From Dictyostelium discoideum (taxonomy: Eukaryota), in the NCBI GenBank assembly GCA_000004695.1, contig CM000152.2, positions 5,632,001-5,696,000 on the forward strand: DNA of 64,000 bases. The letters are read 5' to 3'. The position numbers were made by a program, and so were the translations under genes. Below are positions 47,957 to 50,967 of the stretch, piece after piece (positions within the stretch are counted from its first letter, which is position 1; the number at the start of each line of letters is the position of its first letter). The notes beneath the pieces were generated by a model that did no database searches, was not told the DNA's origin, and was given only the letters and a program-made list of their open reading frames with translations.

Positions 47957-48052
47957 CGACGCCTGCAGGATTTGAACCTGCGCCCCCGAAGGGATTGAAT
48001 TACTCTTTTATATGATTCGAGTCCAACTCATTAACCACTCTGACAAAGCGTC
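47957..48052 (-). tRNA. tRNA-Ser (anticodon CGA), class II, with a long variable arm and an intron of about 15 nt after position 37.
   Basis: The minus strand reads GACGCTTTGTCAGAGTGGTTAATGAGTTGGACTCGAA[tcatataaaagagta]ATTCAATCCCTTCGGGGGCGCAGGTTCAAATCCTGCAGGCGTC-G. The acceptor stem is GACGCTT/AGGCGTC. The anticodon stem is TTGGA/TTCAA with loop C-U-C-G-A-A. The variable-arm hairpin is CCC-TTCG-GGG. The T-arm is GCAGG-TTCAAAT-CCTGC. Confidence 0.8.
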
Positions 48053-48514
48053 ACAATTTTTAGATGATTTTATCTGCATTTCTCAATTGAAATTAGAGAG
48101 GATAATGTTCATAGTAAACTGAATAAATTTATTCAAATTCAAAAAAAAAAAAAAAAAAAAAAAAAAAAAAAATTTTAATTTAACTGTTTTAATTCTATTT
48201 AAATTATATATTACCTTTTTTGATAATTAAATAAGAATTTTTTAAATTAATTTTTTTTTTATATTTTAAATATTTTGTAAATTTTTTGGATGTTTGTGAT
48301 TTTTGTATATTTTATACTTTCATTTTGGGTGGGTTCAGTTCCTTAATTCGAAGGATCAAAATAAACAAAATCATCTCTAGGAACCTCAAAAAGTTCAATG
48401 GAACACATCATATAAAACAATACTCTTCCTAAAAAAATGAAATTTGAAAGATTACAATGGAATTATGACTATTTAAATACTTTTTTTATTATTATTATTA
48501 TTTTTTTATTATTT

Positions 48515-49436
48515 TCATTTTAATATTTTCAATTTTTTTTCAAAGAATTCTTGATATGTTTCAGATGGAAATGAACCGGCAGAGAGCTTATCTAAACACT
48601 TCATCATGTAATTGAAAACAAGAGGGTTCCAGTCTTGTTGGCCCTTGGAAATTATTTGTTTATTTGATACATCAGTAGAGTTGAAACCTAAGCACACCAA
48701 TTCAATATTATTTTTAGTATAGCCTTTCTTGTTGTGGATCCTATTTACAGATAATTTGAAAACTCTATTATTTTCTCCAATATCACCGAGCTGATAGTGA
48801 ATTTGGCTCATCTGGTCTTCTTACAAATTTGGCCTTGGTAATGGCACATCTATCATCATTATTATCACATAGTTTTTCTAATGTTTCTCTTGTTAAACTA
48901 AATTTTCCATATTTTCCATTTTTTTATATGTTGATGGGATCTTTTGTTTGCATTATTTGAAATGTTACGCATAAAATAAGTGTTACCTCCTTTTGACCTG
49001 AATTATTAAAAAAAAAAAAAAAAAAAAAAAATTAAAAACTATAATAAGAATATGCGAAATAATAATAAAAAACTTACAAACACATTTTACATGTCAATAC
49101 ATTTTCTCTTTCATAATTCCATAATGGTTTATCTTGTAAACAACCTATACATTTTTTAAAAATATTAACATCACAATTCTTTAAAAGATCTTTGAAATTA
49201 TCCGATCTTTTAAAGGGAACTATTAATTCATCTTCACTTGAAATGTGTTTCAATTTAAGAAATGAATCTCTTGGATATTTAAAACAATGTTGAGTTATTC
49301 TATGATTAACATCAATATCATTATGATACAAAATACAATGGCCAATATAATTTACAGTAAAAATGTTACAACCAATACAATAACCATTTACTATTTCTGA
49401 ATTTTTTTTTCTTTTTTCAATTCTTCTTCCTCTCAA
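48515..49436 (-). pseudogene. Cys-rich N-terminal domain plus HNH (HNH_3-like) endonuclease-domain gene, apparently fragmented into three ORF segments in different frames.
   Basis: ORF 49074..49436 (MRGRRIEKRKKNSEIVNGYCIGCN...CIGCLQDKPLWNYERENVLTCKMCL) has several CxxC pairs. ORF 48515..48811 (...VNRIHNKKGYTKNNIELVCLGFNSTDV...) matches the HNH motif H-N-N with the N..L..C..CN pattern of phage and homing HNH_3 endonucleases. Between them lies a third open segment (...NTYFMRNISNNANKRSHQHIKKMENMENLVLTRETLEKLCDNNDDRCAITKAKFVRRPDEP) in another frame. I could not find a consistent GT...AG splice path that joins the pieces. Confidence 0.45.
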
Positions 49437-49621
49437 CCATTATTTTTATACATCTAACACAGGTTTCAAAAATTCAACTATAAAATGATGACGGTGAACG
49501 AAGTCTATTACAAAATTTACATATTATAAAACTTTTAAAACTTTTATAAATTGAAAGAAAAAAAAAAAAAAAAGATTAATAATTTTTATAAAATATAATA
49601 CTTCATTGATTAATTTTATAA

Positions 49622-50185
49622 TTACTCTATATTATCATTATTAAAAAATTCTTCGTCATCACTAAATTCATCTTCTGAGTAATCATCTTCTAAATTTAAA
49701 CCATCATCTTCTATATCTGAATCATTGTATTCATATTCTTTGTCATTATATTCGTTTTCTTCTTTTTTATTTAATTCATATTCATTGCCATTTTTATTAT
49801 TATTATTATTATTATTATTATTATTATTATTATTATTATTATTATTATTATTATTATTATTATTATTATTATTATTATTATTATTATTATTATTATTATT
49901 ATTATTATTATTATCATTTGATGTTATTGTTGATGTTGATGCTGTTGTAGTAGTTTGATCATTTAATGGTTGCTGATATAAAAATTTATTATCATCTTTA
50001 GTACTAAAATAATACTTAATATTATCTTGATTATTATCTAATTGTTCCGTTTGCTGCCTCATTTTCTCTTTTTGAATATACTCTTCAATCGAACAAACTG
50101 TTTCCTTACTACTTGATTGAATAAATTTTGGTGATGATGAAGAATCATTTTTATGTTTTTTAAAAGTAATTGAATTACGACCCAT
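49622..50185 (-). CDS. Hypothetical poly-Asn protein with a strongly acidic C-terminus.
   Basis: MGRNSITFKKHKNDSSSSPKF...TTTASTSTITSNDN(N)~45KNGNEYELNKKEENEYNDKEYEYNDSDIEDDGLNLEDDYSEDEFSDDEEFFNNDNIE*. The ORF-track start at 50338 runs through a poly-Phe artefact of an A/T run. I recognise no domain. Confidence 0.45.
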   Translation of the reverse strand: MGRNSITFKKHKNDSSSSPKFIQSSSKETVCSIEEYIQKEKMRQQTEQLDNNQDNIKYYFSTKDDNKFLYQQPLNDQTTTTASTSTITSNDNNNNNNNNNNNNNNNNNNNNNNNNNNNNNNNNNNNNNNNKNGNEYELNKKEENEYNDKEYEYNDSDIEDDGLNLEDDYSEDEFSDDEEFFNNDNIE

Positions 50186-50683
50186 TATAATAATAATAAA
50201 ATAGAAATAATATAATGGGAACCTAAGATTGAATGTGGAAATCAAAAAAGGATGTTTTAAAAAAAAAAAAAAAAAAAAAAAAAAAAAAAAAAAAAAAAAA
50301 AAAGGGTAATTTTTTATTTTTTTTTTTTTACAATTCAATAGAATAATTTAATCGTATATAATACTTATCTCTCTTACATCATATAAATATAGGTTTGTTA
50401 AAATTATAATTTTTTTAAGAATTAATGTATCTTTTTATATTGTAAAATATTAATGAGGTTTACTCTTATTTCAATCATATTAGTTTCATTTTATTTATTG
50501 TCGAAAAGTTATTTAGGCCAAGGCTAGTGAAAAGCTGTATTCAGTGGGCAGAAACTGGACTCACCATATAGATGCAGGCAGTGACTCTTCAGTGAATCGG
50601 AGCAGGTTACCTGAGTGGCAGTCCCTTAATACAAATTAGTTTACTATGAACATTATCCTCACTAATTTCAATTTTTTTTTTTG

Positions 50684-50836
50684 ACGCAATTATTAATTGC
50701 TTCTCCCTGAGATGCTAGATCTCATTTTATTTGTAGTTTTTTACAGGGTCTCTAAAAGAGGGGTTAGTTTACTTTTTATTTTTTTTTTTTTTTTTTTTTT
50801 TTTTTTTTTTTTTTTGTATATTTTCTTTAAAAAGTT
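50684..50836 (-). mobile_element. Retroelement-derived insertion of 153 bp with a 16-bp target-site duplication, ending 48 bp upstream of a tRNA-Ser pseudogene (TRE5-type position).
   Basis: The TSD CTCACTAATTTCAATT occurs at 50668..50683 and 50837..50852. The same site is uninterrupted upstream of the intact tRNA-Ser copy (CCTCTCTAATTTCAATTGAGAAATGCAG at about 48080). On the minus strand the insert reads unique sequence, (A)~36, unique sequence, (A)9, which is a non-LTR-like A-tail. The distance from the proximal junction to tRNA +1 (50885) is 48 nt. Confidence 0.5.
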
Positions 50837-50884
50837 CTCACTAATTTCAATTGACAAATGCAGATAAAATCATCTGAAATTTGT

Positions 50885-50967
50885 GACGCTTTGTCAGAGT
50901 GGTTATTGAGTTGGACTCGAAGCATATAAAAGAGTAATTCAATCCCTTCGGGGGCGCAGGTTCAAAT
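50885..50967 (+). pseudogene. tRNA-Ser(CGA) pseudogene. An inverted duplicate of 47957..48052, diverged and truncated in the T-loop.
   Basis: GACGCTTTGTCAGAGTGGTTATTGAGTTGGACTCGAAGCATATAAAAGAGTAATTCAATCCCTTCGGGGGCGCAGGTTCAAAT then TAAGTAG... It lacks the 3' T-stem and acceptor strand and has 2 substitutions. About 55 bp of 5' flank (CTAATTTCAATTGA(C/G)AAATGCAGATAAAATCATCT) is shared with the intact copy. Confidence 0.7.

Follow-up and report, generated by a model that had tools for sequence, protein, structure and literature searches.

A short insert assigned to the TRE5-A retrotransposon lies 48 nt upstream of a truncated, inverted copy of the Dictyostelium discoideum tRNA-Ser(CGA) gene

The tRNA-Ser(CGA) gene and its truncated copy

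The window considered here (the whole stretch of DNA analysed, 64 kb of Dictyostelium discoideum contig CM000152.2, positions 5,632,001 to 5,696,000, with a G+C content of 21%) harbors an intact tRNA-Ser(CGA) gene, an inverted and 3'-truncated copy of it 2.8 kb away, and, upstream of the truncated copy, a short insert whose sequence points to TRE5-A (formerly DRE), a tRNA-gene-targeted retrotransposon of this species that belongs to the non-LTR type (lacking long terminal repeats). Three tRNA genes are found in the window, namely Lys(CUU) at 20919-20991 (+), Arg(UCU) at 22004-22076 (-) and Ser(CGA) at 47957-48052 (-); once 5,632,000 is added, their coordinates are those of LysCUU-6, ArgUCU-7 and SerCGA-1 on chromosome 3 (S2 Table, PMC5391098), the last at AX4 chr3 5679957-5680052. 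SerCGA appears once in that table, with no second SerCGA gene. Against Rfam RF00005, for which the gathering threshold is 29, the intact gene reaches 46.5 bits and forms a complete cloverleaf; in the Rfam alignment its anticodon loop carries an insertion after CUCGAA, which defines both a short intron and the anticodon CGA. Because of this intron, ARAGORN run without intron handling calls neither serine copy, and Rfam was used instead.

The second copy, at 50885-50967 (+), on chromosome 3 at 5,682,885-5,682,967, is a pseudogene retaining nucleotides 1-83 of the gene with two substitutions (positions 22 and 38). Its homology to the intact gene breaks off within the T-loop/B box, just behind GGTTCAAAT. 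The A box is undamaged, and the B box consists of GGTTCAAAT followed by TA where the intact gene has CC, so that it reads GGTTCAAATTA. The 3' T-stem, the 3' acceptor strand and the terminator are missing, and no T-run is adjacent. No Rfam tRNA call is obtained for this copy even at E<=1, and it has neither the cloverleaf, the B box nor the terminator of a functional tRNA gene; since its 3' end is absent from the T-loop onward, it is dead as a tRNA gene. A tRNA gene split by an insertion was considered and rejected, as no detached 3' fragment is present anywhere in the window.

The two copies face each other head to head. A repeat finder returns inverted arms at 47970-48100 and 50837-50967 (131 nt, 95% complementary), and 20 nt more match beyond the insert, between 48101-48120 and 50638-50657. 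The homologous unit thus runs from -68 to +83, that is 151 nt with six mismatches (96% identity), four of which lie in the flank; past this unit, no homology above shuffled controls was found on either side. The positions and states of the two copies given in the initial annotation agree with Rfam and with the alignment, as does its claim that they share a 5' flank, although this flank measures 68 nt and not the approximately 55 bp proposed. At the intact gene it occupies 48053-48120 (-). At the pseudogene it is cut in two by the insert, with the distal 20 nt (-68 to -49) at 50638-50657 (+) and the remainder next to the tRNA.

Pairs and triplets of tRNA genes with the same anticodon are a feature described in the D. 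discoideum genome paper, as cited in PMC8163159, and numerous pairs of this sort, separated by 0.5-3.5 kb, can be found in S2 Table of PMC5391098. Two same-anticodon inverted pairs with only short common flanks were found among six Dictyostelium loci (L001-L006), which were retrieved via retrotransposon open reading frame 2 (ORF2) proteins found with the window's own reverse transcriptase (RT) ORF. These are a Thr(AGU) pair at L001 11481-12028 (common from -38 to +76) and an intron-containing pair at L003 2293-8818 (-143 to +135); together they suggest that the units copied when tRNA genes are duplicated in this genome measure only 100-300 bp. With two copies of one tRNA within about 3 kb, in inverted orientation and with short common flanks only, the serine pair fits this pattern. 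It differs from the published pairs in that one member is 3'-truncated and non-functional and, SerCGA being tabulated as a single gene, it is not counted in the published tables.

These comparisons bear on how the twin arose. A retro-copy, or transduced or filler DNA produced by TRE activity (through a read-through transcript or a template switch), would account for both the short unit and the 3' truncation; the copies are homologous within -68..+83 only and are flanked on each side by unrelated sequence, TRE activity abounds at the locus, and an A30 run lies about 100 bp past the truncation point. [quoted passage not shown] An origin by retrotransposition is thus distinctly improbable, and we infer that the twin arose by duplication at the DNA level.

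Two further segments adjoin the pseudogene. The sequence at 50968-51090, which ends in the A30 run, was tried as the 3' end of a retroelement that had deleted the 3' part of the tRNA, but it matches no element end in the window or in L001-L006. A block of about 110 nt (50518-50630) that borders the duplicated flank on its distal side has 42-48% G+C; it contains no ORF, matches neither Rfam nor any sequence of the window or of L001-L006, and shows no excess folding.

An interrupted and an empty target site

Exactly two occurrences of the 16-mer CTCACTAATTTCAATT exist, one at 50658-50673 (+) and one at 50837-50852 (+), forming a perfect repeat that cannot be extended on either side. These two copies constitute the target-site duplication proposed earlier, and the first base of the tRNA-proximal one lies exactly 48 nt upstream of the pseudogene's +1 (50837 to 50885), as had been claimed; a 32-nt spacer (50853-50884, +) separates the duplicated site from +1. 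By chance such a repeat is not expected often: in 20 block shuffles, complex direct repeats that are exact over 16 nt or more and fall within a 400-bp span numbered about 0.1 per window, and the other repeats of this kind in the real window are coding or tandem repeats. The insert between the two copies spans 50674-50836. It does split the flank and is A-tailed, but it comprises 163 bp where the initial annotation had 153 bp, and its terminal tail is only A9, the long A37 tract being internal. No second copy of the insert is found in the window.

The intact gene preserves the site in its uninterrupted form, as CTCTCTAATTTCAATT at 48085-48100 (-), with one mismatch to the duplicated 16-mer; its -48 position is unoccupied, and the flank alignment confirms that the insert is absent from this copy. 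The two duplication copies are 16/16 identical and both carry an A at the variable base, where the empty site has a T. Taken together with the 96% identity of the paralogues, this makes an insertion younger than the duplication the parsimonious order; the initial annotation was right to prefer it and went too far in treating it as demonstrated. The reverse order would have the insertion precede the duplication and the intact copy lose its insert, either through gene conversion or through a deletion running precisely from one 16-bp repeat to the other, and recombination between 16-bp direct repeats would indeed restore an exact empty site. However, this order is one event longer, at one base the empty site is unlike either of the duplication copies, and non-LTR elements do not excise, all of which leaves it with hardly any probability.

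Anatomy and identity of the insert

Read on the minus strand, the insert comprises a 21-nt segment AACTTTTTAAAGAAAATATAC (50816-50836), an A37 tract followed by TAAAAA (50773-50815), 90 nt of unique sequence ending in ...TAATAATTGCGTC (50683-50772) and the A9 tail (50674-50682). Insert positions 16-153 are 95.7% identical over 138 nt to L002 8612-8749, a segment that comes after an A48 run and the end of the region coding for the C-terminus of a P0033/P0039-type ORF2, and that itself ends in ...GCGTTATCCAATTC and A13. Two elements from other D. discoideum assemblies served as TRE5-A standards. At L006 1494-7272 lies a complete element with two A-modules, a B-module, ORF1, ORF2 (P0039), a second B-module, an oligo(A) tract and finally the same module as in the insert, an order that matches the published TRE5-A architecture with a duplicated B-module. 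It is located 49 bp upstream of a tRNA gene, head to head with it, and is bounded by a 13-bp duplication, CAAATGATTTTCA. At L003 9270-9796, in comparison, a minimal A-B-C derivative carries the same terminal module, a 14-bp duplication, and a position about 50 bp upstream of a tRNA gene.

Several published details tie these standards to TRE5-A. The quantitative PCR primers Rep-75 (ORF2) and Rep-109 (ORF1) match the L006 element and Rep-108 (ORF1) matches that of L003, whose ORF1 has Ile at residue 10, as the I10* mutant implies. Residues C38, A35, C26 and T15, counted from the 3' end and mutated in a study of the C-module, are the same bases in ...GCGTTATCCAATTC, where the predicted folding of the terminal 54 nt places them in stems I and III. 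The C-module as published is 137 bp long and includes CbfA-binding oligo(dT) tracts, which fits the A-run and approximately 100 nt seen in the insert. The insert aligns with the terminal modules of both standards (and with the L002 and L001 copies), and its fold retains predicted stems I and III and has lost stem II.

The C-module is, however, all that is present: about 142 nt of a ~5.6-kb element, lacking the last 10 nt of the module (TATCCAATTC). Nothing is found of the full A-B-ORF1-ORF2-B-C organization, whose ORF2 combines apurinic/apyrimidinic endonuclease, RT and zinc-finger domains (APE-RT-ZF). On sequence grounds, the insert is best read as a heavily 5'-truncated, non-autonomous TRE5-A remnant derived from the 3'-terminal C-module, and the retroelement end suspected in the initial annotation, which had proposed a comparison with TRE5 ends, is thereby assigned through elements recovered from other assemblies. 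TRE5-C also possesses a C-module with a similar predicted structure and might be thought of as the source. Its module is only 78% identical to that of TRE5-A.1 over the terminal 87 nt according to the published comparison, whereas the insert is ~96% identical to modules joined to TRE5-A ORF2, B-module and ORF1 sequences; this divergence designates TRE5-A as the source and makes TRE5-C a very unlikely one.

L002 contains more than one element. The full-length element there, with P0028 as its ORF2, was rejected as a TRE5-A standard because the published TRE5-A primers do not match it; it belongs to another TRE5 family and has inserted ahead of a TRE5-A 3' remnant that is older than itself. In that remnant (8437-8613 with 8612-8762), the ORF2 stop and the A48 run are joined straight to the C-module without the second B-module present in L006, an arrangement that may result from recombination between two oligo(A) tracts. 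A MITE-like (miniature inverted-repeat transposable element) insertion of ~760 bp with terminal inverted repeats CACAGCGAAGAAAAA... occupies L002 7467-8225, in the 3' untranslated region (UTR) of the P0028-type TRE5.

Fit to the published behavior of TRE5-A

TRE5-A integrates ~50 bp upstream of its target with its 5' end toward the tRNA gene's 5' end, and generates target-site duplications of 10-16 bp (PMC9012585). Typical of it are deletions at the 5' end and, at the 5' junction, non-templated nucleotides; its target choice is attributed to TFIIIB/TFIIIC bound at the tRNA gene, and it is reported to need an intact B box. Against this background, the insert lies 48 nt upstream of an RNA polymerase III (Pol III) A-B box unit. 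Its sense strand is the minus strand, with the A9 tail distal and the truncated 5' end proximal to the (+) pseudo-tRNA; the perfect 16-bp duplication, like the 13- and 14-bp duplications of the two standards, falls within the published range. The insert therefore resembles TRE5-A in its C-module sequence, position, orientation, duplication and oligo(A) tail, and equally in being 5'-truncated and carrying additional nucleotides where its 5' end meets the target. The TRE5-type end at a TRE5-like distance anticipated in the initial annotation is borne out by all of these.

What sets the site apart from a usual TRE5-A target is that the tRNA is a pseudogene with a damaged B box. The closest parallels are the orphan A/B-box TFIIIC-type sites on the ribosomal DNA (rDNA) palindrome and in DDT-B (PMC5391098, PMC9012585), where TRE5-A likewise sits at the canonical distance from something other than a complete tRNA gene; unlike these, the serine site is the relic of a real tRNA gene. 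The intact gene has a usable target site of its own, since published profiling of new tagged TRE5-A insertions recorded 4250, 11767 and 943 mapped contigs at SerCGA-1 (PMC5391098). The SerCGA primer of the profiling study also matches the pseudogene, albeit with a few errors.

Within the window, an internal control is provided by a second, independent -48 insertion at 20364-20882. Here a 5'-truncated element stands head to head with tRNA-Lys(CUU); it is of the P0028 TRE5 family (not TRE5-A), with 95% identity at the ORF2 C-terminus. A 12-bp duplication, TTATGGAAGTAT, surrounds the element, and the junction is found 47-48 nt upstream of +1. A tiny TRE5-A relic was also suspected at -69 of the intact serine gene (TTTATTCAAATTC followed by A32) and rejected, its similarity to the C-module end ranking only 13th of 182 A-runs; A32 is the longest uninterrupted A run in that survey.

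The template of the insertion deserves separate consideration. In place of a 5'-truncated full-length TRE5-A, a short C-module-containing transcript may have been mobilized in trans by TRE5-A proteins, much as a short interspersed nuclear element (SINE) would be. The published work reports that marked elements with only an A-module and a C-module are mobilized in trans and that the C-module's 3' 87 nt are indispensable; moreover, isolated C-module fragments that carry tails and duplications of their own accumulate upstream of a tRNA-Thr gene in L001, and the 21 nt at the 5' end of the present insert are not TRE5-A sequence. On the other side, 5' truncation is the documented TRE5-A norm and accounts for the same structure, and no source locus for a short C-module transcript was identified. 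As the two scenarios differ in the template RNA only, one copy cannot separate them; mobilization in trans is nonetheless considered unlikely.

Reconstruction of the events

The account preferred here, to which we give a probability of roughly 90%, is that a short duplication was followed by a TRE5-A insertion 48 nt upstream of the twin that left only a C-module remnant. A DNA-level duplication of about -68..+83, or more, would have produced an inverted, partial twin of the sole tRNA-Ser(CGA) gene. By analogy with the published behavior of the element, TRE5-A would then have integrated at the twin by target-primed reverse transcription (TPRT), landing at the TFIIIB position, 48 nt upstream of +1, and with the 5' end toward the tRNA. 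Either reverse transcription or second-strand joining presumably aborted almost at once, leaving as product the A37 tract, the 90 nt of unique sequence and the A9 tail, together with 21 filler nucleotides and the 16-bp target-site duplication. As the 21-nt leader is absent from the empty site, it is inserted material; it has no match to TRE5-A sequences among L001-L006 and probably represents filler or non-templated nucleotides.

Five points weigh against this account. The 21 nt at the 5' junction match no TRE5-A sequence compared; the C-module lacks its last 10 nt, a loss that simple poly(A)-primed TPRT does not predict; TRE5-A identity was established via elements from other assemblies; the order of events rests on parsimony; and the B box of the target is imperfect, though TRE5-A is reported to need an intact one. 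The last point implies either that the truncation came after the insertion or that the relic still bound TFIIIC. That the relic was already 3'-truncated when TRE5-A struck is on balance rather unlikely. If it was, a half-tRNA with an A box and 8/9 of the B box still assembles TFIIIC/TFIIIB, and the relic would be an orphan Pol III platform and a retrotransposon landing pad, with the antisense promoter of the C-module pointing into it. The locus raises the question of whether a tRNA relic with a damaged B box can still recruit Pol III factors.

As such, the locus is a clean example of a known process in a well-studied genome, and the feature is known in kind and not new. Its value lies in the paralogous empty site, which allows the insertion to be reconstructed at the level of single bases, from the 16-bp duplication and the -48 junction to the 21 filler nucleotides and the 3'-shortened C-module. 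The tRNA-Ser(CGA) pseudogene is absent from the published tRNA table that was checked (S2 Table, PMC5391098), and the four flank differences between the two copies, marked by the diagnostic bases -45 A, -30 C, -9 G and -5 T, could serve to re-examine the TRE5-A profiling reads assigned to SerCGA-1.

Neighboring features of the window

Approximately 60 bp downstream of the intact tRNA-Ser gene, and in the same direction, starts a 5'-truncated non-LTR element of the TRE3 family (45477-47895, -), in agreement with the downstream preference reported for TRE3. It contains a reverse transcriptase domain (Pfam RVT_1, E=4.6e-37), its ORF is 99% identical to the DDB_G0269266 family of D. discoideum AX4, and its segment 45477-47319 shares 99.5% DNA identity with another copy in L003. 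An A34 run lies inside this element, after the ORF2 stop, and is followed by ~140 nt of further 3' UTR that is likewise 99.5% identical to the L003 copy. Protein P0003 is a paralogous TRE3 copy. Two long ORFs near the tRNA pair, at 48515-49436 and 54594-55541 (-), yielded zero homologues in a search of 5.8 billion proteins; they may not be real coding sequence as read, or may be of low complexity or lineage-specific.

Upstream in window coordinates, 40055-45177 is a block of ~5.1 kb bounded by 244-nt inverted repeats (81%) with 36-nt tandem units, and it encloses a 1.2-kb near-perfect palindrome (42702-43892, centered at 43297/43298). This block looks like a DNA transposon or foldback element, and its motifs resemble the MITE-like insert in L002. 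Lastly, a polyubiquitin gene at 7999-9144 displays exact direct repeats with a period of 228 nt.

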